From the IMG/VR virus record IMGVR_UViG_3300031992_000019: DNA of 64,000 bases. One strand, given 5' to 3'. The notes beneath the pieces are model-generated. The model was not told the DNA's origin. It searched no databases and saw only the letters and a list, made by a program, of their open reading frames with translations. Both the position numbers and the translations under genes were made by a program. Source of the DNA: a virus (taxonomy: Duplodnaviria; Caudoviricetes). Of the stretch, positions 34,659-50,288 are shown piece after piece; the stretch's first letter is position 1, and every line of letters starts with the position of its first letter.

Positions 34659-34815
34659 AACTGTTTGTTTTTGCGCAAAGATAGTTAAAATTATCCTAAT
34701 TTTAGATTTGCTATTTGAAAACTATCGCACTTTGTGGTTTTGTGCTATAAAAGGCGGGAGTTCATCGCCCCCGCCCCCACAAACACACACTAATCACACT
34801 ATGAAGATTATATTT

Positions 34816-34845
34816 TTATCCTTTTCCTCCCTTGGCTTTCGCCAT
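34816..34845 (-). CDS. micro-ORF MAKAKGGKG
   Basis: read from sequence; lies between MATR genes. Confidence 0.4.
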   Translation of the reverse strand: MAKAKGGKG

Positions 34846-34856
34846 ATAGGTCTTTT

Positions 34857-35222
34857 TTATCCGTTTGACGCGGCTCTCGCCTTGTCAGTTGTATAATCTA
34901 CGTACTTTCGGTTAGACACCCTTTTGACAGCCTTATCCAGTCTTTCTTCTGCCGCGTCATATTTGTCCACTGGGCCTCTACCTCTATAATAGTTTCGCTC
35001 GCGTAATGCTCTGCTATGCTCTTCCATATCTTTTTGATGGATTGCGGTTTTCCTTATGTTGTTGAAATACCTTTGCGTAGCATTTTCGACCGCTTTGAGC
35101 CTCCTTGTTAATATTTGCTCATCTCCACCTTCTCGCCTCCTTTTATCTAAAAGTTCCGCGATTCTGGACTCTTGATTTCGCAAGTCTTCTAATGACTTTG
35201 CCCTTTTCTTTCTTGTTGCCAT
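34857..35222 (-). CDS. MATR-family basic protein (ends AASNG)
   Basis: MATRKKRAKSLEDLRNQESRI. Confidence 0.85.
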   Translation of the reverse strand: MATRKKRAKSLEDLRNQESRIAELLDKRRREGGDEQILTRRLKAVENATQRYFNNIRKTAIHQKDMEEHSRALRERNYYRGRGPVDKYDAAEERLDKAVKRVSNRKYVDYTTDKARAASNG

Positions 35223-35247
35223 ATTGTTATCCTTTATTAAGTCCCAT

Positions 35248-35793
35248 TTAACCTACTATTAGAGATGATTTGCCTACAAGCGAGGAGATTCTTCTTTCAG
35301 TCACGTCACGCAGCATATTCTTTGTAGCGATAGTAACATTTGAAAGGGACTCCTTTAGGCTTGATATCCTCTTGTAGAACCCAGCAGTGTGCATTGTTTC
35401 TATCTTGAGGTATCTGGTGTCATAGTGATGCACAAACTCGTGTAGGAGTGTGTCGGCAAAACTCTTTATGGACACCTTCTTCCCAGTCTTGGCAGTGGTG
35501 TTATAGATGACAATGGAATCCTTTACCCCACCTCCGTGACGATAATACCCGTATGTCTGCCCACCTCCGCTACTTCTCCTCGGTCTTTCAGTCACATAGA
35601 CTTTTGGGGAATTTATCTTGTATTGCTTACACAAGTCATCGACCAGAGCTTGAGCAGCCTTTTGCCTACTGCCCTCGTCCTCCTTGGCTTCAAGCAGCTT
35701 TGAGAATAGCGATTTCTTGAATCGTTTCTTCTCAATGGTCTCTATGCTATTGCTCCTCTCATAGTCGGTCGATGTTGTCCTTCGCGTTGCCAT
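35248..35793 (-). CDS. MATR-headed zincin metallopeptidase (SprT/WLM-like)
   Basis: TLLHEFVHH...HTAGFY; ends LIVG. Confidence 0.75.
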   Translation of the reverse strand: MATRRTTSTDYERSNSIETIEKKRFKKSLFSKLLEAKEDEGSRQKAAQALVDDLCKQYKINSPKVYVTERPRRSSGGGQTYGYYRHGGGVKDSIVIYNTTAKTGKKVSIKSFADTLLHEFVHHYDTRYLKIETMHTAGFYKRISSLKESLSNVTIATKNMLRDVTERRISSLVGKSSLIVG

Positions 35794-35794
35794 A

Positions 35795-36175
35795 TTAAGT
35801 TGTTCCTTGCGACTTGGATGCGGTGACGTACTTTGTCACATTGTCACGGAGTGCATTACTGCCCCTATCTACCGTGTCATACTTGGTATAGAGAAGACGC
35901 TTTGCGGTATTATTTCCGAGCCTACTCATATTGTAGAGCCTCTGCGCGGTATTCCCAGGCGAGAACTCTGGCTTGAGTCCTCCATCGGAGGCTTTGCTTA
36001 CATCAATCATAAGCCTACCTGCAGATGTCTTGTTCAGCCTCCTCTGCATCTCGTTGCCCAGTGCGCGGTTGATGCGGTTATAGTTGCGACTTCCGTACCT
36101 TGCCCCGTATGTTCTCTCCATACGATTAGACTGCTCTACCAAGTCGTTGATTGATTTCTTTCTTCGTGTTGCCAT
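35795..36175 (-). CDS. MATR-family basic protein (ends SQGTT)
   Basis: MATRRKKSINDLVEQSNRM. Confidence 0.85.
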   Translation of the reverse strand: MATRRKKSINDLVEQSNRMERTYGARYGSRNYNRINRALGNEMQRRLNKTSAGRLMIDVSKASDGGLKPEFSPGNTAQRLYNMSRLGNNTAKRLLYTKYDTVDRGSNALRDNVTKYVTASKSQGTT

Positions 36176-36177
36176 AA

Positions 36178-36477
36178 TTAACCTTTGTTTAACCCCCGAT
36201 AGGTGTTCGGGGAGTATTTCCTATTCAACTGCTTGCTGACGATTTCGTCCCTCTTGACACCCTCCGCGCCCGCGAACTTGTCATCAAGCCTACGGAAGGA
36301 CTTCGAGTTGGATATATTCCTCTGGTAGTTCCTCGCGGCGGTCAATGCCCTCCTATATCGCCTGTATATTGGAATGGCAATCTCATCGGGTTGGTTCGCT
36401 CCCCTACTCAATGCCATCGTCCTAATTCTTTCAAGCTGCGCCTCTATGTCGTTTACGGATTTCTTTCGTGTAGCCAT
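36178..36477 (-). CDS. MATR-family basic protein (ends GLNKG)
   Basis: MATRKKSVNDIEAQLERI...RKYSPNTYRGLNKG. Confidence 0.85.
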   Translation of the reverse strand: MATRKKSVNDIEAQLERIRTMALSRGANQPDEIAIPIYRRYRRALTAARNYQRNISNSKSFRRLDDKFAGAEGVKRDEIVSKQLNRKYSPNTYRGLNKG

Positions 36478-36478
36478 A

Positions 36479-36775
36479 TTATCCTTTGTTTAGTCCAACC
36501 GCCTTGGTGGTGTCGGGATTGTTGTAGCCAGTATATTTCTGATTCAAGTTCCTCCACGCCCTCTTTCCGTATTCGGTCGGGGTGGCATCACCATTTCGAG
36601 CCTCCCTCACGCGGTTCAACAACCTTTTCCCAGTCTTGCTATTGTCTATGTTGTTCACATAGTTGGAATATATGCGGTTTATCCGCTCCGCTCTTTCGGG
36701 GGAGGGGCTGTAGTCATACAATAACCTACCGCGCTGAATGGATAGGTCGTTCTTGGATTTCGCTCGTGTCGGCAT
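36479..36775 (-). CDS. MATR-family basic protein (MPTR variant, ends GLNKG)
   Basis: MPTRAKSKNDLSIQRGRL; start downstream of promoter 36798. Confidence 0.8.
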   Translation of the reverse strand: MPTRAKSKNDLSIQRGRLLYDYSPSPERAERINRIYSNYVNNIDNSKTGKRLLNRVREARNGDATPTEYGKRAWRNLNQKYTGYNNPDTTKAVGLNKG

Positions 36776-36916
36776 AACTTTTATTTTTTTTCTGCTGCAA
36801 AGATACACACTTATCATATTGTGCAATCAAATACCCATCCGATAGTTTGCACGATAAAAATTTGTGCATAATGTAAACAATTTTCGGACTTGTGCGTTAT
36901 AGAAGAAAAGAGAGTT

Positions 36917-37126
36917 ATGACAGTTTTAGAACAAGAACTTTTAACAATGGCAAAGAGTTTCTTTGCGCACTACAACAAAGAGGGACTGCGTGAGAGAGTA
37001 GCGACACAGGTCTTCTCCAATGTTTACGCGACTTATGACCACATCCCGAGTGAAGAACAGACAAAGAGGCTGGCATCCGAGGCGGTAAAGGCTGCGGACA
37101 TCCTCATTAAAGAGTTGGACAAATGA
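36917..37126 (+). CDS. hypothetical protein
   Basis: LA.EAV.AAD.LI.EL motif; start MTVLEQ. Confidence 0.65.
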   Translation: MTVLEQELLTMAKSFFAHYNKEGLRERVATQVFSNVYATYDHIPSEEQTKRLASEAVKAADILIKELDK

Positions 37127-37518
37127 AAGAGATTATCGCTAACGACATCCTCAATTACATCGAGGATTCACTTAAAGGACTTTCCTTCAACGACTACACC
37201 GAGGTCGCCCTTATGGTGGGTGACAAGTTGGGCAACGCAATGATTAAGGACTTCAAGGCTTATGACAACATCCGCTCCAAGAGGATGGAACGGCTCGAAG
37301 CCGAAATCGCGAGACTCAAAGAAGAACTCGAAGAAGAGAAGGCAAAGAACGACCATCAGGAGAACTTCTACCTCTCCCAGATAGCCATCCACAACATCAA
37401 CACCGAGAACGCGCACCTCGTCAAAAGACAGAAGGACGCGATAACCAACATGAGAAGGTCTTACCGAGCCACCATCAAGGGACTCCAAGACCAGATTGAC
37501 AATTACAAGAATATATGA
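37123..37518 (+). CDS. coiled-coil hypothetical protein
   Basis: 131 aa, coupled. Confidence 0.65.
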   Translation: MKEIIANDILNYIEDSLKGLSFNDYTEVALMVGDKLGNAMIKDFKAYDNIRSKRMERLEAEIARLKEELEEEKAKNDHQENFYLSQIAIHNINTENAHLVKRQKDAITNMRRSYRATIKGLQDQIDNYKNI

Positions 37519-38724
37519 TTTTCTTCGCAATTACTGGCATCGTCTTCGGGTTATACATCTACTTGAAGGATGCGAGAAACTTTAATGAGTTTGATTGATT
37601 ATGAGAGTTTGGAAACCGAAAGTCGGGGAAACATTCTACCTCCCCCACTTCATCTATTCTGGATTCACCACGATTAAGGCTACCTACAAAGAGGGGTACA
37701 ACTTCATTACCGACAACAGACTTGCATTCCCCACCGAGGACGAATGCCAAAAGTTCTGCGAGTATCTTAACAAGAAATTCAAGGCAGCAATAAATGAGTA
37801 TTAACGAGCATTGGACGCAAAAGCACGGCAGACACGTTCCCAAGAAACAATTCACCTCTCTTGAAGAATGTATCGAGTTTCTCCGCGAGAACAAGATTCG
37901 GGGATATCACCCCTATGTTTGCAGCGTCTGCGGTCAATGGCATATAGGTCACGACAAATGATAGAACTCCTTCTAATCGGTATGTTGAGGTTTTCCGCAG
38001 ACTCCCTCATAGTCAACTCTACCGAAAGGGTAGAGATAGGCTGCGAGAAAATCTCCCTTGTGTTCCGTCCGTCTGGGTATGTTTTGAAATCATATTTCCC
38101 GAAGAAACTCAAGGAAGGTCTCAAAGAGTCCGCATACATCAAGGTCGGGGACAAGAAATACGTCCTCAACGAGAAAGAGAAATGTGTCTTGCTTAACTGG
38201 TTAAAGTGATGGAAGAGAAAGAAAACGGATGTGCAGACATCTTTATCATACCCCTATGTATCTTCGGTGGTGCGTGGGTTATCATGTGGTCTTGGAATGA
38301 CCTTGCCCCTTTTTTCCTTGGTGAGGTGAACACCATGTCATACAAGTTCGCACTCAAGTGCATGTTGTACTTGTTCGTGATGCGTGTATTGCTGAAATAG
38401 TTGCTTTCTACGGCACTTTCTCTTTTCTGACGATAAGGTTATCGTTTGGATTGAGAAAGTCCGTTAGAAACAAAAAAAATCGGGATATCCGCGATACCCC
38501 GATTATGTTAAATTTTGTTAACACTTGCAACAAATACGTTTTTTCTGCGTCTTATATATAGAAACACCTAAAAACATACGATTATGAAAGAAAAAAAATT
38601 CCCAGAGTGCATCTTATCTTCCGAAGAACTCGAGAAGATGGACAAAGAAGAAATGAAGAAGGGTCGCTACCGCGTAGGATTTGAGGACGGACTTCCCATC
38701 TATCTTGCTGTTGGTGGCGAATGA

Positions 38725-39501
38725 CTATCGCTTTGTTGGATGGTTCTGGCGAGATGTATAGTTCCAACCGAATCTCTTGGCTACCCTCTTGTTAAGTTCG
38801 TTGGCCATATATACATCAGTTCTATCAGTGACTTGGGCATCCCAACCCCTTCCTTTACGAATTAACTTCAATCGACCCCTTTGGTGCTCGTGTAATGCTA
38901 TCTCCTTTCCAAGTTTTGCCGCCTCTATTTCATAGGCTCTTTTTACTTGTGCAGGAGTTGCTCCCCATCCGTTTTTCGGTCGTTTGAAGGAGAAAGTAAA
39001 GGTAGGAGTTGCGGCACGCATTTCTGCCGCATTCCAAGCCACCGCAGAAATCATATCGTCTTTGCTGAATGAGTGCCCAATTCCACCGAATCCTTTTTTG
39101 CCTATTGACAAAGGATGGTTGTGAGTCAAAACGATATTCTTCTTGGCTCCGAGCATCATAAGGGCAAGTTGTTCATACTGGTTAGGCTCAACCTTATTGC
39201 CCTTTCCTTGTTTGCTAAAAAGTTTGTTGCCATTCTCATCAAAGACGTGAAGCTGCTCATCGTGAAGATTGCGAGTGTTTTCCTCTACATCTGATAATGC
39301 CTTCTTGAGACCCTCGCTATGACCTACCTCGGTGTCATGCTTGGAAAGTTCCCTTTTAGCCTTCATCTGGACACTTACCGATGGCTTCTCGTACTTTTTC
39401 TTCTTGTCGGAGGCATAGGACAGACTACCGAAGCCTATCTGCGGTTTCGTATAGACCTTCTTCGGTTTCTCCTTGCGATACTTGTAGATTCCTTCTGCCA
39501 T
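38725..39501 (-). CDS. JAB/MPN-like metalloprotein
   Basis: E (DEQLHVFD) ... THNHP ... SFSKDD matches the JAMM E..HxH..S..D pattern. Confidence 0.65.
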   Translation of the reverse strand: MAEGIYKYRKEKPKKVYTKPQIGFGSLSYASDKKKKYEKPSVSVQMKAKRELSKHDTEVGHSEGLKKALSDVEENTRNLHDEQLHVFDENGNKLFSKQGKGNKVEPNQYEQLALMMLGAKKNIVLTHNHPLSIGKKGFGGIGHSFSKDDMISAVAWNAAEMRAATPTFTFSFKRPKNGWGATPAQVKRAYEIEAAKLGKEIALHEHQRGRLKLIRKGRGWDAQVTDRTDVYMANELNKRVAKRFGWNYTSRQNHPTKR

Positions 39502-39502
39502 A

Positions 39503-39862
39503 TTATCCTTGGTTTCTACCCATATAGGTGTTACGTGAATACTTGCGGTTCATCCTCTGCCAATAGTATTTTCCCGCCTTTTTCATTATTTTCCTATGCT
39601 TCTCCAACTCTTTGCGCTCCCAAGGTGTAGGTTCGTGGAAGATAAGGTCAATCTTACTGGCTCGGTTAAGTTCGCGATTTTCCTTCTCCCTCGCATTGCT
39701 CGCACTTTTCGTTCTTCGGATATTACCCGAATACCTAAACGTGATGCCCTCGGCACGCCTTGCCCTCTCTCTGCTACTTTCAGTGCCAAGTTCCTCGGCA
39801 AGCCTTTCTATTCGTGCCTGCTGTTCTATCAAGTCTTCTATTGACTTTTTACGTGTAGCCAT
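39503..39862 (-). CDS. MATR-family basic protein (ends GRNQG)
   Basis: MATRKKSIEDLIEQQARI...RKYSRNTYMGRNQG. Confidence 0.85.
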   Translation of the reverse strand: MATRKKSIEDLIEQQARIERLAEELGTESSRERARRAEGITFRYSGNIRRTKSASNAREKENRELNRASKIDLIFHEPTPWERKELEKHRKIMKKAGKYYWQRMNRKYSRNTYMGRNQG

Positions 39863-39866
39863 AGTT

Positions 39867-40304
39867 TTAACCCGCTGAAAGTCCTTTTGATTTCCTTTTT
39901 GCCCTATACTCTGCGCGACTTGACGATGGAAGGGAGTTTATCACCGACCTTGCTTTCTCTGCGGAGTCAATCCCCCATTTGTTTGCATCAATGTCAAGCC
40001 GCTTTCCGTTGCGGAAAATCTCATAGGCATATTTATCTACCCTTTTGACCTCATATCCGTTATGGGAGAAATTGTTGGTGTTATAATCCCTATCAATGGC
40101 AGCTTTCGTCTTGGTTATATCAAACTGGTCACCGATATTCAGGTCGAGGCCTTCTCCATAAGGTGTTTCCACACTATACTGCCTACCGCCATCGGCTGAT
40201 ATGTTGCGTATAGTGTACCCCTTGTAATTCTCACTATAAGATGATGGGGAGATATAAGCCACATCCCCATCGTCACCGCTTGTAAGTCTAATTCGTCTTG
40301 CCAT
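39867..40304 (-). CDS. cargo-bearing member with SSRAEYRA...GLSAG tail
   Basis: C-terminus shared with 40713..41579. Confidence 0.75.
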   Translation of the reverse strand: MARRIRLTSGDDGDVAYISPSSYSENYKGYTIRNISADGGRQYSVETPYGEGLDLNIGDQFDITKTKAAIDRDYNTNNFSHNGYEVKRVDKYAYEIFRNGKRLDIDANKWGIDSAEKARSVINSLPSSSRAEYRAKRKSKGLSAG

Positions 40305-40617
40305 AGTCTAATATGTTATAACCCTCTTCAACGGAAATACCCAAGTCCTCACACCCACACTCAAAACCATAGTTGGTGAATGAGTCGGCATTGAACAAAC
40401 CATTGTCGCCATTGTGGACTTTCGGAAATCCGTTCTGCGTAAGAAATATGAGAACCGATGCACAAGTTGCTTCGTCTATGCTGACAAAAGGATTGAAAAC
40501 GAATCCCTCGCCATTCTTGAACTCAAATGCTTTCTCGCCATAGATGTTGTAGATTGCTCTACCCTTGATGATGTACTCATCATTGAAACACTTGTTGTAA
40601 ATAGTCTTGATGTTCAT
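40288..40617 (-). CDS. hypothetical protein
   Basis: 109 aa after promoter 40646. Confidence 0.6.
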   Translation of the reverse strand: MNIKTIYNKCFNDEYIIKGRAIYNIYGEKAFEFKNGEGFVFNPFVSIDEATCASVLIFLTQNGFPKVHNGDNGLFNADSFTNYGFECGCEDLGISVEEGYNILDYGKTN

Positions 40618-40712
40618 AATCCAATATATTTATCGTTTGACGCTGCAAAGATATTGGATATTCGTTGGATGTTCAACGAACTATTGTGCAAGTGCCCCGA
40701 ATTTAACATCTT

Positions 40713-41579
40713 TTAACCTGCTGATAATCCTTGCGCTCTTCTGCGTGCGCGATATTCCGCTCTTGAACTTGCCTTTGGTTTGGGTGCTCTCGGTGTGTCG
40801 ATGAGTTTCTGGGCATACCGCCTATCCTCGGCTTCGCGTTCCTTGTCGGCAATGGCACTCATAACGTCCTTGAGTTCGCTTGGTCGGATTCTCAAGTCGC
40901 TATGCCGTGTCCTTGTGCGCTCCCCATCAAAATAATGCTCCGCTGGGATGGTTTTACCCCTTTCAAGTTCATCAAGCGAGATAGCTTCGTCTCCGTCAGT
41001 AGAATCACCTTGCCAATAGACATTCGCCCAGTATCTTCCCTTGTTGTCTTGATAGACACTATCTATGCGATGATTCCAGTTGAACTTCGTGTCTATACGT
41101 CCCGTGCGCTTGTCAGGTTGAGAGGACACATACCGCTTCAAGGCATCCATTCCTCCGTTTCTTAATCTCTCGGAGTTGGTGTGTTCGCTTTCGGGGACTC
41201 TGTTAGACCTACGGAGTTCCCTCGCATAGGCATCCACATCACTCACGCCAGTTCGCGTGGCTCTATCCACCTTGAAATCGTCGTTGTAGGCAAGGGGAAT
41301 GCGGTCGTACCTTCTTTCGTAGCGATTCCACTCCTCGCGCACACTCGTTACTGGCGACTTCTTTCTTGTGGTGTTGAGATAGGAATTTGCAGTTCGTCCA
41401 GCATTCCTCACCCTTCGCTCCATATCGTAGGTGTGCGGATTGTAGTCATTGGTGTCCCGATAACCGCTCTCCCTCCACTTGCGTATCTGGGAATCGGTCA
41501 TACCGCCAAGCCTACCGATGCGCTCTATCTGCCTAACGATGTCGTTGTAGGACTTTCCCCTTTGTCTTGTCTTTGCCAT
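40713..41579 (-). CDS. large MATR-family protein (ends GLSAG)
   Basis: MAKTRQRGKSYNDIVRQIERI...SSRAEYRARRRAQGLSAG. Confidence 0.85.
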   Translation of the reverse strand: MAKTRQRGKSYNDIVRQIERIGRLGGMTDSQIRKWRESGYRDTNDYNPHTYDMERRVRNAGRTANSYLNTTRKKSPVTSVREEWNRYERRYDRIPLAYNDDFKVDRATRTGVSDVDAYARELRRSNRVPESEHTNSERLRNGGMDALKRYVSSQPDKRTGRIDTKFNWNHRIDSVYQDNKGRYWANVYWQGDSTDGDEAISLDELERGKTIPAEHYFDGERTRTRHSDLRIRPSELKDVMSAIADKEREAEDRRYAQKLIDTPRAPKPKASSRAEYRARRRAQGLSAG

Positions 41580-41782
41580 AGCTTAAAATTGTCTTACCTT
41601 GCCGCTCCCACCGATGGGATAGGTCGGGGAAGGAGTATTCTTTCCCCAACTGATGCTCCTTGTGGTGGAGTCGCGCTGAATGTCCTTTAGGACGCTATTG
41701 TTGTGAGTTGATGGTTTCATGCCGCAAAGATACGCGATATTACATTCCCACAATCAATTTTCTTTCGTCAAGATGCACAATA

Positions 41783-42160
41783 TCATTTTGTGCGGAAATT
41801 CCTCACCATTTCGGCCAATCCGACACGCTTGAGGACATAAAGGAACTCATGGACATAGCGGACATGGATGCGCCAATCGTCATTGTTCTTCTCATAGACC
41901 TTGGAGTAGTACAACACCCCGCTCTCAAACCACCTGATACACGACCCACCAAATATCATCTCAACGAACGCGCCCTTGTCCGTAAACCCGTTCAACAAAA
42001 GCATTTCCCTCGTCAAAGGAATAGGCTCAAGCACCGACGCGTCATAGTTGTTCATGTTCTCGTCCGTGACCTCGTTGAAAGTGCCGTTGATACCGCACAC
42101 CACGATAGGTTTCCCCTTATAGGAGACCCTATCAAGATAACACAATTCAGTGATATTCAT
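41783..42160 (-). CDS. hypothetical protein, paralogue of 26102..26458
   Basis: LEPIPLT..LLLNGF...RYVHEF. Confidence 0.7.
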   Translation of the reverse strand: MNITELCYLDRVSYKGKPIVVCGINGTFNEVTDENMNNYDASVLEPIPLTREMLLLNGFTDKGAFVEMIFGGSCIRWFESGVLYYSKVYEKNNDDWRIHVRYVHEFLYVLKRVGLAEMVRNFRTK

Positions 42161-42779
42161 CTTCTACAAAATATTTGCAAATTATACCATTCTGCTCAAC
42201 AAAGAACTGGAAGGAGGCATTGAAATAGTTTGGTTTCGGATAGTTCTTATCCCAAGTGTTTCTGCCCATCTTTCCGTCTTGTTGGTTCTTTATATCCCTC
42301 ATCTCGGTCTTGTTGGACGCATAATGCAACCCCAATCTGTATCTGGCATAGAAAAGACACTTATTGCGGAGGTGACAATACCCGTTCACGCAGCTTATCC
42401 GCTTATCCTTAATCTTGTAGTCTTGCGGAAGGTCTATTGCCCTCACAAGTCCTTCATATTGCTGCCAGAAATACTCTAATGTTTCTTCATCATTCATTTC
42501 TCTATCATTTTTAATGCAAGAGGCTTTTGGGAGACATCGGTCATCTTCTGTATCGCCCACCACCTCAAGAAATCTCGTGAAATATCTCTCTTCACCCACC
42601 GATTCGATGAGGAATACTCAAAAATCACGTCATAGCCGTGGTTCATGCCCAGACCTTCGTTGCTTATCTCGGCATAATCCACGACCCATAGTTTACCATC
42701 GGGACAGACCTTCTTGATATACATCACCTCGAAGGAGTATCTGTTTCTCTTGAAGATACAATCCCCGACACCTATCCTT

Positions 42780-43091
42780 TTAGCCTCTTCGCGGTTCATG
42801 CTCTTCGAGATATTCTATGAGGAGTTCACCCCGTTCCTTTATGTCTTGGATGGTTTCAAGTATATCCACCGCCAAGTCCTTGTCATCCTCATCGGAGGAA
42901 CACAATAGTTCGTCAGCAAGGCTCTTGACCATCTCGGATGTCTTTATGTACGCATCCAGCAACAGGACAAGGGCATTGTGGCTTTTCAGTTTGCCGCCCT
43001 TGACCTTATCCAAGCATTGCGTCTCCATCTCGTTGTAGCCATTGAGCATAGCCTCGGAGGTGTGACGCAGTTTATATCCGCTATCCGTCAT
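42780..43091 (-). CDS. hypothetical protein
   Basis: 103 aa. Confidence 0.6.
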   Translation of the reverse strand: MTDSGYKLRHTSEAMLNGYNEMETQCLDKVKGGKLKSHNALVLLLDAYIKTSEMVKSLADELLCSSDEDDKDLAVDILETIQDIKERGELLIEYLEEHEPRRG

Positions 43092-43436
43092 ACTTTTCTT
43101 TTATAACGGACAAAAGGGCATTTTCTTTACGTGTATTGCAAGATAATCGTTTGATTTAATGTTTACGATGCAAGGATGTTCTTTCGCTCTTCGGGGGAGA
43201 GTTCTATCTTCAGCCGTTGCCCGAAGATGTCCCAGAGTTCTACCTCTTTGCCCCCGATGATGTCCATCATCCCGAAGGGAGTGTCGGCTTCTGCCTCGAA
43301 ATAGTCCTTCTCGACTATCGTCAGCAGAATCCTCTCGTTTTCGAGCCGTACCGCGTCTATTTCAGCCAAGGGTACATTTCTACCGCCCACAAGGTAAAAC
43401 CCCTCAAAAACGGCATCTATCGGCTTGTACGAGCCT

Positions 43437-43739
43437 TTAACCTTCGCGTTCATACAACTCGAAGTGGATATCGTCCACAAGGGACTTGATTCGGGACTCG
43501 TACTCTTCGTCATTCTCTTCTCGCTCGTGGGTGAGCCACACCTCGCGCAGATGGGTCATGAACTCGACTTTCCAGCCTACAAACGCACCGAAGAACGCGG
43601 AAAGGTTTCCAGCATCTTCGGGCAAATCGGACACCTCAAATTTCTTGATGTCCTCGACTCTTTCTCTCTTCACCTCTTCGGGTGTGAGACGGGCAAGGCA
43701 CTCTTGTACCTCGCCCTCTGGGTAGTTGTACTCTATCAT
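43437..43739 (-). CDS. hypothetical acidic protein
   Basis: likely start MIEYNY after hairpin 43762. Confidence 0.6.
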   Translation of the reverse strand: MIEYNYPEGEVQECLARLTPEEVKRERVEDIKKFEVSDLPEDAGNLSAFFGAFVGWKVEFMTHLREVWLTHEREENDEEYESRIKSLVDDIHFELYEREG

Positions 43740-43770
43740 ATTAAAAAGCGATATAGTTAAAGGCGGTTGG

Positions 43771-44124
43771 TTAGACCGCCATACCCTTGATTTTCTTGTT
43801 AGCTTTCTCACACTCACCGAACTCGACCTCGAAGGTGTTGCCGAAGTTGTCGGTAGCCTCGCCCGAAACAAGGTTGAACCCGATGATGTGGTTGTCGGCT
43901 ATGTCAGCACCGCCATTTGCCACAATCTCGAACTCGCCAGACTCGCCAATTACGTCTAAAATGTATTCGGGGTACTCGCCATCTATTGTGAAGCCATCTA
44001 CCTCGAAGTCATCTACCCATACCTTCTTGATGTTCTCTATGGGGACAATCTTGCCCTCGATGATGTAACTTTCTTCGCCAGTGACCTCGATGTTGCGCCA
44101 CTCATTGTTTACTAATGCCTTCAT
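43771..44124 (-). CDS. hypothetical acidic protein
   Basis: likely start MKALVN after the conserved leader. Confidence 0.65.
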   Translation of the reverse strand: MKALVNNEWRNIEVTGEESYIIEGKIVPIENIKKVWVDDFEVDGFTIDGEYPEYILDVIGESGEFEIVANGGADIADNHIIGFNLVSGEATDNFGNTFEVEFGECEKANKKIKGMAV

Positions 44125-44291
44125 ATTAAGAGGTATTACTCGGGTACGTTGCCCGCTCGGTCGCAAGACTGATTCTTTTGACACCGCAAATGTACGATAT
44201 TATATTGGATTAAGCAAGATTATTTTATAGTTTTATCCAATATATGTATAGTTTTAACCAATATTAACGCGATTTGTAATGTCCAATAGAC

Positions 44292-44328
44292 AAAAAAATA
44301 GAGATGACACCGAAATGCCACCTCTATT
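44292..44328 (-). terminator. intrinsic terminator
   Basis: aatagag...ctctatt hairpin plus T-run on minus. Confidence 0.6.
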
Positions 44329-44348
44329 GTCAAAATAAGCAATGAAAG

Positions 44349-44927
44349 TTAACCAGTTGATACTGCGCGGTAGGGTGCTGGACGACCGTTGCCGCGTCCT
44401 GTGAGTGCGGTGATTTCGTCCTCGGATGCTCCGTTTGCCCTCAATGTGGCTTCGAGCCTTGCGAGTGCTTCGGGTGAACGCTTGTCGTTGTTCAAGCCTA
44501 CCCTTACGTAATAGTCGCGCTGGCGGCGGTTGGCTTCGCTTGTCATCCTTCCGTTTTCGCCCTTGCGTGTGCCGCTCTGCCTCTTGTTGCCCTTGGAGTC
44601 GAGAACTGCCGTTCCGTCATCGTTCTTCGGGGTGAAGAGGTTGGTCTTGGCGTTCTTGGTGTCCGTTCCAATGAGCCTTCCGTTCTCATCGCGCTTGGCT
44701 ACCGCCAGTTTGCCGCCCTTTGAGGTGGTGGAGTCTGCGGTGTACCTTCCGTCCTGATAGTTCTGGTTCATTGCGCCCATAGAGGAACGTCCATCGGTAC
44801 GGGTGTGGTAAGGAGTGTTGCCGACCTTCGTCACGTTATAGTGCTTGACCTTGACACCCTTGCCCCTCAACTTCTCGTCGAGTTTCTGCCCGAGTTCTGC
44901 TGTCCTTTTCGGTTTTCGTGTTGCCAT
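44349..44927 (-). CDS. MATR-family Gly/Arg-rich protein (ends AVSTG)
   Basis: MATRKPKR..., NRRQRDYYVRVGL; adjacent to the PP-loop enzyme. Confidence 0.8.
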   Translation of the reverse strand: MATRKPKRTAELGQKLDEKLRGKGVKVKHYNVTKVGNTPYHTRTDGRSSMGAMNQNYQDGRYTADSTTSKGGKLAVAKRDENGRLIGTDTKNAKTNLFTPKNDDGTAVLDSKGNKRQSGTRKGENGRMTSEANRRQRDYYVRVGLNNDKRSPEALARLEATLRANGASEDEITALTGRGNGRPAPYRAVSTG

Positions 44928-44969
44928 ATTATTTAGTTAATTTAAGTTTCACGCTGCAAAGATAGGGGT

Positions 44970-45707
44970 TTATTCCTCTTCGCAATCATTTTCATCCGTT
45001 TCACTTTGCACTATTCTTTGTTGTGCAAGTTTCCTTCTCTCCGCTTCGTCATACTCAAAGAGAATAGTCCTCGCAAACGGAAAGACTTCGTAGATTTTCA
45101 GCAGGTCTTGGGGGTAGTTCTCCCTCAACCAGAGAAAGCAGTCCTTCGAGAATCCCACACCCGATGATGCCTTTAACGAGTACCTCACGGGTTCGGGGAT
45201 GCCCCTATTCTTCATATACAAAAGAATCTCCTTCTGCGTCCAGCTCGCCAACGGATAGACCAGACCCTTGTTGATGTAGTCGCTCTCCTTGTAGGTGTTG
45301 AGCATAAGCCTTCGGTTCATCGAGTCGGCTTTCTTCATACCCAAGAAGACATACTCCACATTATAGGTCAGCCTTATCGTCTTTATCACGTCGTCCAACT
45401 TAATCAACTTGACATTCGGGTCGGGTGCGCAGTAGAGTCCGCTCCTCAATACATAACTTAACGTCCAATGGGGGATTTCCACGAACTCTATATTCGGATA
45501 TCTCGCCTTCGTCCAGTTTATCCATCTTTGGATGTGGTCTAACCCCTTGACGAAATACATGAAGAAACACACTATCCTATTGAATTTCGGATAGCACAAG
45601 TCCAAGGTCACGAGGGAGTCCTTTCCTAACGACAGTCCTATCGCTATCGTGTCGGTCTGCTCCCTCACCTTGTCAATGACCAGATTGGCTTCTTGCAGCT
45701 TGTTCAT
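44970..45707 (-). CDS. PAPS-reductase-like / PP-loop adenine-nucleotide alpha-hydrolase
   Basis: IGLSLGKDSLV (SxGKDS), LGMKKADSMNRR, YPLASWT. Confidence 0.88.
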   Translation of the reverse strand: MNKLQEANLVIDKVREQTDTIAIGLSLGKDSLVTLDLCYPKFNRIVCFFMYFVKGLDHIQRWINWTKARYPNIEFVEIPHWTLSYVLRSGLYCAPDPNVKLIKLDDVIKTIRLTYNVEYVFLGMKKADSMNRRLMLNTYKESDYINKGLVYPLASWTQKEILLYMKNRGIPEPVRYSLKASSGVGFSKDCFLWLRENYPQDLLKIYEVFPFARTILFEYDEAERRKLAQQRIVQSETDENDCEEE

Positions 45708-45910
45708 CCCACACCCATATAAGTGGTTCGCGAATACTTCTTGTCATACGCATCCCTCCCCTTGAATGAAGGGTGCTTGATGATGTTGTCCGTGTATCGG
45801 TCTGCCGCAATGTTCGCCCTGTCCACACGTTCCTTGGTGGCGCGTGGGTGGTTCTCAATCCTCTCTGCTTGCGCGAGGATGTCGGAAAAACTTTTCTTTC
45901 GTGTTGCCAT
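45704..45910 (-). CDS. MATR-family basic protein (ends YMGVG)
   Basis: MATRKKSFSDILAQAERI; coupled between the ParB-like and PP-loop genes. Confidence 0.85.
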   Translation of the reverse strand: MATRKKSFSDILAQAERIENHPRATKERVDRANIAADRYTDNIIKHPSFKGRDAYDKKYSRTTYMGVG

Positions 45911-46731
45911 TACTCTTCGTCTTCAAATGAATCGTCAACCAGTGGTTCGCATCGCATCTCGAAGTCCTCCCCCTTGATTGTACGGCTATAAGGGTCGTAG
46001 TTGAATTTCTGGCAGAAGGCGGCTTTCGCGTTGAAGGTGGAGAAACTCAACACGAGGAAGGCATCCATATTCTGCGCGTTCTCGACGGCTTGCTCACGGA
46101 CTTGCTGCTTGACATCCTTCATGTGCTGCACCCTCTGCTCCCTCGTCATCTCCTCCTGTGCAAGTCTTTCGGCTTCCTTTGAGGCTTCGCGGATGGCGGC
46201 TCTCTCGGCTTTCTCCTGCTCATGCTGCTCGTTTACTGGAGCCATAAGGTCATCCAAGGCATTTCGCGTGTCTGACTGCCCAGCCGTCTTGTAGAGGTCT
46301 TCCAAGCCAATCATTGAAAGGTCGGCTTCGGTGAGTCCAGCATCCTTGTAGTCGATGTCGGGAACGATGGCGGCTAACTTGTCGAAGTCCCACTGCCCTT
46401 GCGCGTTGGGGTTGTTCAAGAGGATAAGGAGCGCATCCGCATCCTTCTTGTCCAAGTCCACCACATCGCAGCGAATCTTGTAGTCGGTTTCGGGTGTGCC
46501 GTCGTACTTCTGAATCTCGTCCATGATGGTGAGTCGCTGGTGTCCAGAGAGGAGCGTGTAGCCGTACCTCTTGTTTACAACGATACCTCCCACCAGACCG
46601 AACTTCTTGATGCCCCTCTTGAGCTTCTTCTTGGATTCGGGGTCGATACGTCTTGGGTTGTTCTCGCTGAATTGGATTTCGGAGCGCATCAGTTCGATGT
46701 TCTCCGAGGTGAAAAGTTCTGATAGTTGCAT
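45910..46731 (-). CDS. ParB/Srx N-terminal domain protein
   Basis: NNPRRI...LKRGIKKFGLVGGIVVN...LLSGHQRL. Confidence 0.88.
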   Translation of the reverse strand: MQLSELFTSENIELMRSEIQFSENNPRRIDPESKKKLKRGIKKFGLVGGIVVNKRYGYTLLSGHQRLTIMDEIQKYDGTPETDYKIRCDVVDLDKKDADALLILLNNPNAQGQWDFDKLAAIVPDIDYKDAGLTEADLSMIGLEDLYKTAGQSDTRNALDDLMAPVNEQHEQEKAERAAIREASKEAERLAQEEMTREQRVQHMKDVKQQVREQAVENAQNMDAFLVLSFSTFNAKAAFCQKFNYDPYSRTIKGEDFEMRCEPLVDDSFEDEE

Positions 46732-46751
46732 TGTGTTTGTGTATTTAGTGA

Positions 46752-47024
46752 TTAACCTTCGTTTCCAGCACGCGCGGAGTAAGACCGCTTGGTCTCATAA
46801 GCCTTGTTCACGGCTTGCCCAGGCATCATACCGCTCTCCACGTTACGTTTGTACTCCCTCTTGACCCTTTCCGAGTTGTTGATGTTTGAAACGTACCTTT
46901 GGGCGATGGCTTTTGCCCTCTTGAGCCACGGGTTGTTGGAGTCATAGTTCTCCACCGCGTTCTCCGCAATCCTGTTGTACTGGTCTATGATGTCCTTTGC
47001 GGACTTTCTCCTACGTGTTGCCAT
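46752..47024 (-). CDS. MATR-family basic protein (ends AGNEG)
   Basis: MATRRRKSAKDIIDQYNRI. Confidence 0.85.
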   Translation of the reverse strand: MATRRRKSAKDIIDQYNRIAENAVENYDSNNPWLKRAKAIAQRYVSNINNSERVKREYKRNVESGMMPGQAVNKAYETKRSYSARAGNEG

Positions 47025-47025
47025 A

Positions 47026-47304
47026 TTATCCTACTCCCATATAAGTTGAACGGGAATACTTCTTCGTGTTGATTTTCGCGATGTCCTCAAAGCTCGCGTT
47101 CTCGCCTTGGCTGGCTACATTCCTATAACCGCTCTGCTTGGCGATGTTTGCCGCATACCTCTTATATGCGTCCTTGATGCGCTTATCCCTCGCGTCAAGC
47201 ACCGCAGCTTGTGACGGGTCTTGCACCCACCTCCTATTTATCGCATTGCGAATCCTCAATGTCTGGTTGATGAGGTCATCCAAAGATTTCTTTCTTGTTG
47301 CCAT
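47026..47304 (-). CDS. MATR-family basic protein (ends YMGVG)
   Basis: MATRKKSLDDLINQTLRI. Confidence 0.85.
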   Translation of the reverse strand: MATRKKSLDDLINQTLRIRNAINRRWVQDPSQAAVLDARDKRIKDAYKRYAANIAKQSGYRNVASQGENASFEDIAKINTKKYSRSTYMGVG

Positions 47305-47305
47305 A

Positions 47306-47602
47306 TTATCCGTTGCTCAATGCCCTCGTTGTCGATGCGTTCTGATAACCCGTGTACTTCTTGCGATAGCCTTCTGCTGCGATAGTCCCGTAGGTCTGAC
47401 TCATAGGTAATATCGTTTTTTTGAGCAGATTCTTCTGGCTTCTCGTACCCACGATGTTCTCGCGATACTTGTCACTGATGTCGTATGCGCGGAGTGCCCT
47501 ATTATAGGCGCGTGGTGTACCAAGTTTTATTGCGAGTGCTCCAATACGCAGCCTCTGTCTGGTAATATCTTCCAGTGACTTTGCTCTTTTTCTTGTTGCC
47601 AT
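47306..47602 (-). CDS. MATR-family basic protein (ends ALSNG)
   Basis: MATRKRAKSLEDITRQRLRI. Confidence 0.85.
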   Translation of the reverse strand: MATRKRAKSLEDITRQRLRIGALAIKLGTPRAYNRALRAYDISDKYRENIVGTRSQKNLLKKTILPMSQTYGTIAAEGYRKKYTGYQNASTTRALSNG

Positions 47603-47604
47603 AA

Positions 47605-47928
47605 TTAGCCTCCGTTTTTACCCATGTAGGTGGATTGTGAATACTTGCGGTTGCGATAAGCATCATAAAACCTATCTGCATCCTCGTAGTTCTTGTTCTT
47701 ACGGGCTTCCTCATACTTAGCCATCATCTTACGGACATAAGGAGACCGCTTGATGATGTTTCGAGTATAATGAGGTTGTGTGAGTGCATTGTATTCCCTA
47801 TTACGGGTGCGATTCAATGCCTCCTCGTCATTGTTCCTCTCGTAACGACCTTGTAATTCCGCCGAAAGGTCTTCTATACGATGCCGTTGGTCAATAATGT
47901 CCTGAATGGATTTCTTTCTCGTTGCCAT
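47605..47928 (-). CDS. MATR-family basic protein (ends GKNGG)
   Basis: internal start MATRKKSIQDIIDQRHRI. Confidence 0.85.
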   Translation of the reverse strand: MATRKKSIQDIIDQRHRIEDLSAELQGRYERNNDEEALNRTRNREYNALTQPHYTRNIIKRSPYVRKMMAKYEEARKNKNYEDADRFYDAYRNRKYSQSTYMGKNGG

Positions 47929-47929
47929 A

Positions 47930-48346
47930 TTATCCTTGTGATAAACCTTGTGACTTGCGGCTTTCTCGGTATAGTTTCCGTTGTGCCGCACGATACGTGT
48001 TGTTAAGTTCACTCTCCGATGCCTCAGACTTGAACCGCCAAGTCCCGTTTGCGCCGTACTCCGTCTTGAGGTTGGTATTCAACCCTTGTCGGGTGGCTGC
48101 GTTGTTAAGCATCCTCCATAGGCGTTGACGTTCAATGTCCGCTTTCCTCTCGTTTCTCAAGGTCCGGTTGTACTCGGCTCTCGCCCCTCGCGCCCTACCC
48201 TTCTTGTTGGTGAACGCATCCCTCAAGTCCCGATGAAAAGTGTTGTTGATTCTGCGGTTTCCCGTCAAATCGCCTGCATAAAGCATATTTACAAGCCTTT
48301 CATATTGCGCTTGTTTCTCGGCTCTCGTCTTTTTTCTCGTTGCCAT
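47930..48346 (-). CDS. MATR-family basic protein (ends GLSQG)
   Basis: MATRKKTRAEKQAQYERL. Confidence 0.85.
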   Translation of the reverse strand: MATRKKTRAEKQAQYERLVNMLYAGDLTGNRRINNTFHRDLRDAFTNKKGRARGARAEYNRTLRNERKADIERQRLWRMLNNAATRQGLNTNLKTEYGANGTWRFKSEASESELNNTYRAAQRKLYRESRKSQGLSQG

Positions 48347-48352
48347 AATAGT

Positions 48353-48400
48353 TTACTTTCCGCAACCCTTGCCTTTGCCCTTACCTTTCTTCTTGCACAT
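48353..48400 (-). CDS. micro-ORF MCKKKGKGKGKGCGK
   Basis: read from sequence; fills the gap between two MATR genes. Confidence 0.5.
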   Translation of the reverse strand: MCKKKGKGKGKGCGK

Positions 48401-48404
48401 AGTT

Positions 48405-48761
48405 TTAAGTGTTTGAGTTAGACTTCGATGCTATGCCCATTCGCTGCTCACGGGTAGCCGATGCTCCCTTGTAGGCTGCGAAAGCCACGTTATCTCCATA
48501 CCCCGCTGCTCGCGCGGTGTTCCTTTCGTAGTTGTCACGCGCATTGCGCACACGCGCCATCCTTTCACCCAACTGGTTGGTTCGGGCGACTGAACGCCCA
48601 TATCCCCTCGCCTCCCAAGGGCTGCGGTAGTTTCTCCGATACTCGGCTTCTACACCCCTCTGGAAGTCCTTCCTTGCTCCCCACTCCCTATCAAGGCTGG
48701 TGAGAATCCTATTGGCTTGCTCGGTGATTTGCTGAATAGTTTTCCTTCGTCTTGTTGCCAT
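48405..48761 (-). CDS. MATR-family basic protein (ends SNSNT)
   Basis: MATRRRKTIQQITEQANRI. Confidence 0.85.
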   Translation of the reverse strand: MATRRRKTIQQITEQANRILTSLDREWGARKDFQRGVEAEYRRNYRSPWEARGYGRSVARTNQLGERMARVRNARDNYERNTARAAGYGDNVAFAAYKGASATREQRMGIASKSNSNT

Positions 48762-48762
48762 A

Positions 48763-49119
48763 TTACCCGTTACTTGCGGCTTTCGCTGCGTTAGTGTTAT
48801 AGTTCACATACTTGCGGTTGTCCATCTTGTCGTAGTACCGATAGGCTTTTTCATCCTCATCCCAATATTTTTCTTCGTTGTCATCCATAAACGCCTCGTA
48901 TTTCGCCGCTTGTGCCTTATTAACCCTTTGCAGGTCGCGCTGGAAAGTGGATGAACCAGTAATGTTGTTGTTATACTCCCTTGCTATGTTACGCGCCCTT
49001 TCCAATCTTCCTTGGTTGCGCTCCCTTTCCCTTGCATAGGGTGAAGTTGCGAGTAACTTGATTCTTGCAACTTGTCGCCTTATGTCAGCGAGGGATTTCT
49101 GCCTTTTCCGTGTTGCCAT
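48763..49119 (-). CDS. MATR-family basic protein (ends AASNG)
   Basis: MATRKRQKSLADIRRQVARI. Confidence 0.85.
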   Translation of the reverse strand: MATRKRQKSLADIRRQVARIKLLATSPYARERERNQGRLERARNIAREYNNNITGSSTFQRDLQRVNKAQAAKYEAFMDDNEEKYWDEDEKAYRYYDKMDNRKYVNYNTNAAKAASNG

Positions 49120-49123
49120 AACT

Positions 49124-49384
49124 TTATGTGTTAGAACCCGCTGCGGTGGCTCTCGTGTAGATTTCCTTGTCGAACTTCCTATCGAGCCTATCCTCTACGG
49201 GGGTGTTCTTGTTTTCCCTATCTATCGCGTTGTTTATGTTGTTGCGATACCTGTTCGCGATTCTCTCAACCCTCCTGTTCCACCTTTCTATGCGGTGTCT
49301 GTCCGCACTCTTCGGGTCAACTGGTCGGATGAGCCTCTGCATCTGCTCGAACAAGTCCCTTATGGATTTTCGTCTTGTTGCCAT
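49124..49384 (-). CDS. MATR-family basic protein (ends AGSNT)
   Basis: internal start MATRRKSIRDLFEQMQRL, downstream of promoter 49399. Confidence 0.85.
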   Translation of the reverse strand: MATRRKSIRDLFEQMQRLIRPVDPKSADRHRIERWNRRVERIANRYRNNINNAIDRENKNTPVEDRLDRKFDKEIYTRATAAGSNT

Positions 49385-49532
49385 ATTATTTTTTGCCGCA
49401 AAGATAGCCGTAAATATTCCTCTCCAATCAAAATTCTTGTCTCTCTTTGCACTTGTTTTTATTGTGCAATAATACGGGGGATTTAATTCCTCTCCTTTAT
49501 GAAATGTGCCTATCTTTGCACCAAAAAAAGAC

Positions 49533-49811
49533 ATGGTGACAGAACTAACTTTCACGAAAATAGAGAACGGGTACGAATCCCAAGTGGTAACGGTGACCAG
49601 CGACTTCAACCTCCACCTTGAAAGGGAGAATAGGGGCGCGGTGTATATCTTCCAGAAGACGGACGGAAACAAGTTCGGGTACGGCACATCGTTTGACGCG
49701 GGGAATCTATGGAAAGACCTCGACGTTGACCTTGACGCAAGACTCTATCCCAAGGACATAAAGATTGTATCTTCAAGCGCGGTATTTTACGGCAGCATTT
49801 CGCAAGAATGA
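49533..49811 (+). CDS. hypothetical beta-rich protein (tail-associated?)
   Basis: first gene after promoter 49511. Confidence 0.6.
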   Translation: MVTELTFTKIENGYESQVVTVTSDFNLHLERENRGAVYIFQKTDGNKFGYGTSFDAGNLWKDLDVDLDARLYPKDIKIVSSSAVFYGSISQE

Positions 49812-49967
49812 GACATCTATCGGGATATAACAAATTAGGAAGAAACCTTTCGCGGGTACTGACAAGACCAGACATCCTTCTCTCCGAACAAAAGAGGGAA
49901 AGGTTCTATCTTCTCGACTCCGAGGGGTATAGATTGAAGGATAGTGACGGAAATTATTTAATGGTAA

Positions 49968-50288
49968 ATGGATAAGACTCTAACACGCAAGGCTGCGGAC
50001 ATAGATAGGATTCTTTCAAAAGCCGACTCCATACAAGCCACGTATGACGGAAGTGTCTGCTCGATAACCTACAACGCGGCTAAAACCGCGATAGACAACG
50101 GAAGGGATGTGACCATAACCTACAATGGACGTAACTACATCTACTCCAAGTTCTCAAACAACACCCTTTTCTTCGTCTGCGCGGACAACAACCTACATTA
50201 TCTTACCGCCACCCAAGACGGATGGCAATCCTCGACAAGGAAACTCCTTTTTGCGGAGGACGGGGAAAACACCTATAACGACTTCTAA
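49968..50288 (+). CDS. hypothetical tail-associated protein
   Basis: 106 aa coupled to the next gene. Confidence 0.6.
   Translation: MDKTLTRKAADIDRILSKADSIQATYDGSVCSITYNAAKTAIDNGRDVTITYNGRNYIYSKFSNNTLFFVCADNNLHYLTATQDGWQSSTRKLLFAEDGENTYNDF

Follow-up and report, generated by a model that had tools for sequence, protein, structure and literature searches.

A candidate three-part phage module of a PP-loop enzyme, a ParB-like protein and small basic proteins with a C-terminal glycine

Results

The 64,000-nucleotide stretch analysed here (the window) comprises bases 45836-109835 of IMG/VR record IMGVR_UViG_3300031992_000019, a CheckV-complete, single-contig virus genome of 165,288 bp (165 kb; GC content 0.50) belonging to a rumen or gut phage. 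Three consecutive genes on its minus strand are the subject of this report. They encode a ParB/Srx-like, IbrB-like protein of 273 residues (45910-46731; phrog_9353, phrog_620), a 68-residue protein termed MATR68 (45704-45910), and a 245-residue, IbrA-like PP-loop ATP pyrophosphatase of the clade resembling 3'-phosphoadenosine 5'-phosphosulfate (PAPS) reductase (44970-45707; PF01507, phrog_424). Each of the three is single-copy in the genome. MATR68 starts MATRKKS, ends YMGVG immediately before the stop, has an isoelectric point (pI) of 9.9 and is the shortest member of what we call the MATR family.

The TAA of the ParB gene and the ATG of the MATR68 gene share one base (TAATG), and the MATR68 stop and PP-loop start have four bases in common (ATGA), as a sequence-only reading of the locus had described. 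Most MATR genes of the operon are spaced by 1-4 nt, and start/stop overlaps are ordinary there; thus, the overlaps alone are not beyond chance. The presence of a basic gene with a terminal glycine codon directly at the PP-loop gene is beyond chance. A translational read-through fusion of the three genes was ruled out because the overlapping starts lie in other frames than the preceding stops.

Residues 26-31 of the PP-loop protein are SLGKDS, and the protein matches Pfam PAPS_reduct (PF01507; E 8.4e-9, 36.1 bits against a cut-off of 22.5) and phrog_424 (3.8e-21). In an alignment of 33 homologues, S26-x-G28 K29 D30 S31 is nearly invariant (≥90%), Y151 and L153 of a YPL motif are invariant with P152 at ≥90%, and D128, S129, N131 and R132 are also conserved. 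The same alignment contains no invariant cysteine, C47, C93 and C200 being replaced in a paralogous clade, and the C-terminal ECGLH of CysH is absent from the protein, which ends in an acidic, helical segment. Curated CysH models were not reached (NF002537, 16.1 bits against 154; TIGR00434, 13.6 against 165.1), nor were the cut-offs of curated CysD, DndC, SspD and BrxP models. A PADLOC scan gave no DndC or SspD match and only a BrxP match to residues 122-153 (PP-loop motif; E 1.9e-4). These results agree with the sequence-only reading in that SLGKDS occurs without an Fe-S cysteine cluster or ECGLH, and that the protein is no true reductase of PAPS or adenosine 5'-phosphosulfate (APS). The accompanying suggestion of a relationship to DndC fails on cysteine features, as the hallmarks of DndC are a three-cysteine 4Fe-4S site and a cysteine dyad (PMC10853773). 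Lacking both an invariant cysteine and the ECGLH tail, the protein is therefore neither a sulfonucleotide reductase nor DndC; judged from its sequence, it is an intact ATP-activating enzyme.

An AlphaFold2 model of this protein shows a PP-loop fold (predicted local distance difference test, pLDDT, 85.1; predicted template modelling score, pTM, 0.81). The nearest solved chain in a VIA comparison was the PAPS domain of human FAD synthase (8rom; Z 15.3, root-mean-square deviation (rmsd) 2.8, 154 aligned residues), followed by CysD (1zun; Z 14.7), GMP synthase and APS reductase 4bwv (Z 14.3), and LarE (Z about 14). CysH/APS reductases as a class gave Z 13.2-14.3 with rmsd 3.7-4.9 over 166-178 aligned residues. 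In the model, FAD synthase, CysD, GMP synthase, APS reductase and LarE are effectively tied as nearest folds, and the predicted fold is that of adenylyl-transferring enzymes of the PAPS-reductase clade. The sole Pfam match was PF01507 and not the QueC family (PF06508), and no QueC chain was among the structural matches listed, the top ones being FAD synthase, CysD, GMP synthase and LarE. PDB sequence searches with the PP-loop and ParB-like proteins returned noise only.

The ParB-like protein matches phrog_9353 (2.6e-75), phrog_620 (8e-21) and the ParB part of PADLOC MTase_II (2.8e-11), with Pfam ParB_N below cut-off (E 0.024; 15.1 against 26.3 bits). Its N-terminal ParB domain contains a YNPR-type box, GGIxVN and SGHQR; a charged helical linker leads from it to a small C-terminal domain that is conserved. 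Residues R16, S17, N25, P26, G45, G48, N53, G63 and D71 are invariant among 27 homologues, and the NPR-type box and Gly-x-x-Arg nucleotide-binding motif typical of ParB/Srx N-termini are represented by N25 P26, by G45 and G48, and by G63 in SGHQR. At the level of the phage pair, the IbrA/IbrB-like assignment made earlier holds: a PF01507-type gene lies beside a ParB-domain gene, and homology was shown to phage genes so annotated. Only the 68-residue gene separates the two genes here, and they overlap directly in a close relative (L094). In about 80 relatives the pair lies immediately upstream of the terminase genes TerS and TerL; in this phage TerS follows on the same strand only after 11 kb, which contain MATR and other genes.

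Searching IMG/VR with the PP-loop protein yielded 80 loci at 55-68% identity, in which two layouts were found: PP-loop, ParB, TerS, TerL, portal; and, in 70-220-kb phages, PP-loop, ParB, second PP-loop, a gap, second ParB, TerS, TerL, portal. Upstream of the PP-loop genes lies a short, very basic open reading frame (ORF) of about 42-81 codons, the stop of which often overlaps the PP-loop start, with C-terminal motifs such as FGLSGG, LGMSSG, MGLSAG and RRLRRG. After clustering of the PP-loop proteins at 80% identity, 14 clusters had upstream DNA to read, and 13 of them have a glycine-ended ORF that stops at most 140 nt from the PP-loop start and often overlaps it. The background rate in the same loci is 331 glycine-ended ORFs among 6720 in six frames. 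MATR-family or other basic glycine-ended genes also occur between the PP-loop and ParB genes of seven or more other metagenomic loci (L011, L017, L102, L107, L111, L113, L114); those of L011 and L017 are additional glycine-ended genes, and L017's include a MATR gene. About 35 related phages have the pair with only a tiny Arg/Gly-rich, glycine-ended peptide and no MATR-family member.

Comparable genes exist in cultured or named phages. Bacteroides phage BS-TP2 encodes a 53-residue "hypothetical protein" (gp53) that ends GSNG, just before its PAPS-reductase gene (gp54), ParB gene (gp55) and terminase. In Lactobacillus phages LR1 and JNU_P7, the genes for PAPS reductase and ParB-like nuclease flank one or two genes for basic proteins; one such protein per phage starts MARQR or MARKK, and all end GKSSG, GSKGG or GSRGG. 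Riemerella phage RAP44 has an unannotated basic ORF of 44 residues in the corresponding place that does not end in glycine. Collectively, these arrangements support a tie between small glycine-ended basic proteins, MATR proteins included, and the PP-loop/ParB pair in many lineages, whichever gene of the pair comes first. The earlier proposal that the pair is a catalytic core acting on the MATR proteins or on DNA is thereby supported in part, in the association it implies, but stays conjectural in its chemistry. As read from the translations, the exact C-terminal glycine of the partner proteins is conserved across non-homologous families.

Large gut phages show a further variant. In L045 (7601-10696), about 45 similar IMG/VR loci and L001, an ASCH-like gene, a 74-residue glycine-ended basic gene, PP-loop, ParB and a second PP-loop paralogue lie back to back, and TerS is preceded by a second ParB in phages of this class. 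Unlike these relatives with their ASCH-like gene ahead of the module, the genome of this phage has no ASCH domain (PF04266).

At least 19 co-directional genes of 68-288 residues starting MA(T/R/K) lie between 34070 and 49384 of the window, with none elsewhere in the genome. Eight of the family, in tandem on the minus strand (46752-49384; 86-138 residues; hidden Markov model (HMM) matches), precede the ParB gene in one transcription unit. All MATR genes encode basic proteins (pI 9.2-11.2, 16-26% Lys plus Arg). The family is defined by a start MA(T/R)(R/K)K, Q14, R17, a central RY..NI and an end (K)Y.x.TYMG..G at the carboxylate, all of which MATR68 has; its L091 orthologue matches the family HMM at E 2.4e-14. 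The consensus is MA(R/T)(K/R)K at the N-terminus and RKYS-x-x-TYMGLSNG at the C-terminus, and 140 of the 152 top representatives have a C-terminal glycine at fixed distance from YMG. Synonymous variation among the Arg and Gly codons of the conserved ends indicates that selection acts on the protein. A word-index search with 10 matches had suggested that the family is nearly unique, a notion overturned by an exhaustive profile search that gathered 431 representative clusters at E ≤0.001, 58 of them at ≤1e-10. Pfam and PHROG scans of 120 members gave no recurrent family and no covering model, and tblastn of a consensus-like member (P0026) against 50,697 GenBank phage records matched nothing.

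A PP-loop gene is present in all six informative contexts of the MATR family. L091 repeats the order of the window, with ParB, the 68-residue gene, PP-loop and a 192-residue gene, and in L094 the pair lies inside a MATR array. L017 has a MATR gene between PP-loop and ParB; in L107, L111, L113 and L114 the PP-loop gene is separated from a following ParB gene by one to three MATR-family genes, the intervening gene of L114 being a TYMGL-pattern match that the MATR HMM left unscored. L102/L103 have three glycine-ended genes, PP-loop, four more such genes, then ParB, TerS, TerL and portal. In L104/L105 the PP-loop gene is followed by at least five MAR-headed glycine-ended genes and a sixth, MARKK gene cut by the contig end. 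L003 and L004, which look like MATR arrays without the pair over shorter flanks, have it 1.7 kb further on.

Three other ORFs of the minus strand touch on the family. A 181-residue protein (35248-35793) starts MATRR, contains an HExxH motif and ends in glycine; the MATR HMM does not match it, and its weak zincin matches are all below cut-off (Peptidase_M91, E 0.001; SprT-like, 0.011). Two ORFs without the MATR head are matched by the HMM: 27015-27218, outside the array, which ends RIGQ, and 36482-36817, which ends GLNKG.

The AlphaFold2 model of MATR68, built on an alignment of 120 family members, is of high confidence (pLDDT 93.6, pTM 0.79). Predicted elements are a strand at 5-7, helices at 8-19, 26-45 and 52-56, a strand at 58-60 and a helix at 61-65. 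As the model has only two strands, the conserved N-terminal RKKS segment must pair with the C-terminal KYS segment, so that "head" and "tail" each make up half of a single small domain. In the model the N- and C-termini are side by side, and nothing but the final three or four residues (G-x-x-G) protrudes; the variable central part of longer paralogues is accordingly inserted into this domain. Comparison with the PDB gave nothing meaningful (lowest Foldseek E 1.5; highest VIA wide Z 5.7, to a helical part of an epimerase). A 69-residue UniProt protein from a gut "Siphoviridae sp." matches the MATR68 fold with a template modelling (TM) score of 0.81. For a 92-residue MATR protein, the ESM Atlas returned a low-confidence model with generic helical neighbours.

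Comparison of the window with L091 and L094 suggests that MATR68 is mobile. DNA identity to L091 is 91.6% for the ParB gene and 91.1% for the PP-loop gene; the MATR68 gene differs at 1 of 207 nt (99.5% identity), against an expectation of about 18 differences. In both flanks L094 resembles the window more closely (95.0% for ParB and 93.9% for the PP-loop gene, with PP-loop proteins 97.5% identical); it lacks MATR68 and has a ParB stop that overlaps the PP-loop start by 8 nt. Near-identity of MATR68 amid diverged flanks, along with its absence from L094, points to recent exchange, or insertion and deletion, as an ORF-precise unit. The conserved coding ends probably supply the homology for such cassette exchange. 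The gene recreates the canonical arrangement of a glycine-ended gene with a stop overlapping the PP-loop start.

The Bacteroidota-type -7 box TATCTTTG occurs 20 times in the window against 2.8 expected. A composite of the operator GCAC-N11-GTGC, a spacing of 42-43 nt and TATCTTTG occurs six times in the window against 0 expected, and at least 11 times in the genome. One copy with 42-nt spacing (49399-49467, minus strand) heads the unit of eight MATR genes, ParB, MATR68 and PP-loop; a single palindromic operator within 49399-49518 serves this promoter and a divergent one (49449-49518). A second minus-strand copy (44957-45026), with its operator within the last PP-loop codons, heads a gene for a 192-residue basic MATR protein, and three more on the same strand head the remaining MATR blocks (41725-41793, 36798-36867, 34676-34745). 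Elsewhere in the genome, a copy heads the operon with the major head protein (phrog_29, 1.1e-28). From these promoter sequences, the module appears to be expressed late, together with virion genes.

The neighbouring genes are likewise on the minus strand. Directly downstream of the PP-loop gene, the 192-residue protein (44349-44927) starts MATRK and ends AVSTG, and homologues occupy the matching position in L091 and L094. A second MATR array (34070-36477), which includes the 181-residue MATRR protein with HExxH, lies directly upstream of the terminase genes. These are TerS-like (33217-33957; phrog_309, 6.6e-25) and TerL (31526-33220), followed by portal (30042-31523); evidence for these genes also comes from tblastn and from Terminase and SPP1_portal Pfam matches on the orthologues in L003/L090. 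Megablast of 34000-50000 against GenBank phages matched nothing. The TerL of the window has 564 residues and is intein-free, and that of a close relative has 1094 residues with intein/Hint and homing-endonuclease Pfam matches (L003 11637-14921, L004 11164-14448). A second terminase-like stretch (22954-23409, minus), inside the ORF 21868-23508, has 38% identity to TerL residues 27-178 (tblastn E 2e-24). Within the MATR region, a 258-residue protein of unknown function (38725-39501, minus) has relatives of 30-37% identity in the class of 70-220-kb phages, where its homologues (L045, about 15128-15721; L001, 10715-11461) are flanked on one side by the PP-loop/ParB/PP-loop set and on the other by the second ParB, ahead of TerS.

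Discussion

Our favoured interpretation, to which we give about even weight, is that the trio of the window is a copy of a widespread, late, packaging-linked phage module of three parts in which the PP-loop enzyme works on or with glycine tails. Its parts would be an IbrA-like PP-loop ATP pyrophosphatase, an IbrB-like ParB/Srx protein and at least one small basic protein with an exact C-terminal glycine. The module would be expressed with the late (capsid) regulon from the operon block that leads into TerS, TerL and portal. In this phage the partner family would have expanded to about 20 paralogues that move as ORF-sized cassettes, MATR68 being one recent insertion. Some functional link between the enzyme and the glycine-ended proteins is probable.

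What the link might consist of can be proposed more tentatively. The enzyme may use ATP to activate or modify the glycine-ended tail, a role as substrate that gene order and tail conservation suggest and to which we assign somewhat less than even weight. Most economically, the C-terminal carboxylate would be adenylated and then transferred to a nucleophile; carboxylates are adenylated by the PP-loop enzymes NAD synthetase, QueC and LarE. During packaging, the ParB-like protein would keep this chemistry on phage DNA. In the most specific and more doubtful form of the proposal, the enzyme would be a protein-tail ligase that adenylates the C-terminal glycine carboxylate of MATR and other glycine-tailed proteins and passes it to an amine. 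Candidate acceptors would be the neighbouring N-terminus of the same protein (head-to-tail cyclisation), a virion protein, or phage DNA held by ParB.

Several observations weigh against this interpretation. L094 lacks MATR68, and the wedge gene is thus dispensable between the pair. Three MATR paralogues of the window end in Thr, and L109 and L112 are MATR arrays before TerS with no PP-loop or ParB gene within the stretch examined. The MATR profile has no detectable homology to the 141-residue wedge protein of LR1 (hhalign E 0.36), and the MATR HMM does not match the tiny Arg/Gly peptides; the third part is thus recognised by its features and not by homology. More distant phages (Pm86, BigBern1, CA1NRNZ and Morgana; hosts Pasteurella, Bifidobacterium, Cutibacterium and Gordonia) pair the PP-loop gene with a non-ParB protein, and no glycine-tailed gene was seen in them. 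The non-ParB partner of such distant phages may share the C-terminal domain of the ParB-like protein, a weak similarity in the case of Pm86 (hhalign E 0.0095, probability 4%). Conserved adjacency is partly inheritance, because the loci come from related phages. Finally, FAD synthase and CysD, to which the enzyme is structurally close, adenylate phosphate or sulfate rather than carboxylates.

The main alternative is co-location in which the parts do not interact directly. The glycine-ended basic proteins would then be DNA-condensing or internal virion proteins, synthesised late and packaged along with the DNA, with the pair acting separately on DNA, by modifying it or by marking or initiating packaging; the two would be neighbours through a shared packaging-operon head, and tandem duplication would drop MATR copies wherever tolerated. 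We consider this explanation unlikely, if worth serious attention. It accommodates the basic character of every MATR protein, the capsid-type promoters of the MATR genes and their position adjoining TerS, TerL and portal, and a wedge that is a mobile cassette absent from a near-identical phage. The arrays of L109 and L112 without a PP-loop gene fit as well, and a zincin-like enzyme with a MATRR head is as expected if the head is a cargo targeting tag. However, co-location leaves unexplained why a glycine-ended gene is translationally coupled, by stop/start overlap in many clusters, to the PP-loop gene specifically. Nor does it account for an exact C-terminal glycine in unrelated small proteins beside PP-loop genes of Bacteroidota and Lactobacillus phages, and the predicted structure places the N- and C-terminal motifs in one fold rather than as free tags.

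An IbrAB-type regulator, phosphorothioation and true sulfate assimilation are progressively less likely, in that order. E. coli IbrA and IbrB reportedly activate prophage eib genes, as Sandt and colleagues are said to have described in 2002, and the pair might similarly be a co-activator of late phage transcription, with the small basic proteins unrelated or accessory DNA-binding factors. That the pair opens the late/packaging block in about 80 relatives, and that ParB-family proteins bind DNA, would suit such a role. We nonetheless regard it as improbable: the pair is itself transcribed from a late-type promoter and so cannot first switch on that promoter class, and a conserved PP-loop catalytic motif argues for an enzyme. 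Phosphorothioation or another insertion of sulfur into DNA, by a relative of DndC, SspD or BrxP with ParB as the equivalent of DndB, draws on the Pfam family common to DndC and the PP-loop protein, on a pairing that resembles DndB/DndC, and on the weak BrxP match to the PP-loop motif. It is very improbable, as DndC has defining cysteines (PMC10853773) and the PP-loop family has no invariant one, neither a PADLOC DndC/SspD match nor a curated NCBIfam model was reached, and a cysteine desulfurase was not noticed nearby. That the enzyme is an ordinary assimilatory PAPS/APS reductase, encoded by an auxiliary metabolic gene, has only the Pfam and PHROG name in its favour and is scarcely credible. 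The ECGLH catalytic cysteine and the Fe-S cysteines are lacking, CysH models gave 13.6-16.1 bits against cut-offs of 154-165, and the partners in the IMG/VR loci are always ParB and terminase genes, never sulfur-assimilation genes.

Hundreds of phage genomes have a "PAPS reductase" and a "ParB-like nuclease" annotated ahead of the terminase, and such genes are tallied among sulfur auxiliary metabolic genes. An overlooked third component, a small basic protein with an exactly conserved C-terminal glycine, travels with the pair. Its recognition turns a vague annotation into a testable three-protein system, for which Bacteroides phage BS-TP2 (gp53-55) and Lactobacillus reuteri prophage LR1 are cultured models. 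Should the tail be a substrate, the module would represent a new protein-modification chemistry in phages; if not, a common mis-annotation is still corrected. A tail ligase, if real, would amount to ubiquitin-like tagging in phages, with a PP-loop enzyme in place of E1 and applied at DNA packaging.

The enzyme pair is already known, as an unexplained kind; the MATR family, its fold, its expansion, its cassette behaviour and the reversed, ParB-first order are new. Papers listed by full-text searches on the pair and its location gave annotation-level mentions only, and a further search led to papers on Dnd and defence systems; none of these describes a glycine-tailed partner or a measured function. 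Riemerella phage RAP44 (gp33/gp32), Bacteroides phage BS-TP2 (gp54/gp55) and Lactobacillus phage LR1 likewise have "PAPS reductase" and "ParB-like nuclease" pairs before the terminase. The PP-loop proteins of RAP44 and BS-TP2 are 33-35% identical to that of the window, and the BS-TP2 ParB protein is 35% identical. Translational coupling and a location upstream of TerS/TerL are shared as well; the window differs in its ParB-first order, the MATR gene between the pair, the approximately 20 MATR paralogues around it and the 11 kb to TerS. In the phage records examined, the glycine-ended third gene goes unremarked, as a "hypothetical protein" in BS-TP2, LR1 and JNU_P7, and the adjoining small ORF of RAP44 is unannotated.

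More distant systems share single features. DndB/DndC (also SspD and BrxP) combine a ParB-superfamily protein with a PF01507-type PP-loop ATP pyrophosphatase, whereas the enzyme of the window lacks the DndC-defining cysteines and has no DndA, DndD or DndE partners. QueC-family PP-loop enzymes modify a glycine-bearing flexible terminus of a partner protein (bioRxiv 10.1101/2025.04.06.647259; PMC13279940). In Cap9-CdnD, which carries out deazaguanylation in type IV cyclic-oligonucleotide-based anti-phage signalling systems (CBASS), and in QatC-QatB, the PP-loop enzyme is found beside a partner with a glycine terminus that is essential or modified (10.1101/2025.04.06.647259; PMC13279940). The likeness is by analogy only, since the enzyme of the window belongs to PAPS_reduct and not QueC, and the glycine is at the C-terminus rather than the N-terminus. 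Moreover, Cap9 and QatC belong to host defence systems, unlike the present phage late operon, which has no tRNA-guanine transglycosylase (TGT) or 7-deazaguanine gene. In the sulfur relays TtuA-TtuB and Ncs6-Urm1, a PP-loop enzyme takes the C-terminal glycine tail of a carrier into its active site, and TtuA-TtuB (5gha) was among the Foldseek matches. Those carriers have a ubiquitin-like beta-grasp fold and depend on an E1-like enzyme for activation, and TtuA contains an Fe-S cluster. By contrast, the small proteins of the window are basic and helical, and their fold is without a PDB match; a conserved cysteine is missing from the enzyme, and an E1-like gene was not seen. The MATR array itself recalls the T4-type internal proteins (IPI-III), a hyperplastic array of small, basic, late proteins encoded near head genes and sharing an N-terminal capsid-targeting motif. 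The T4 motif is a cleaved signal, whereas the MATR N-terminal motif is a predicted strand paired with the C-terminal motif, and the C-terminal glycine is conserved as well.

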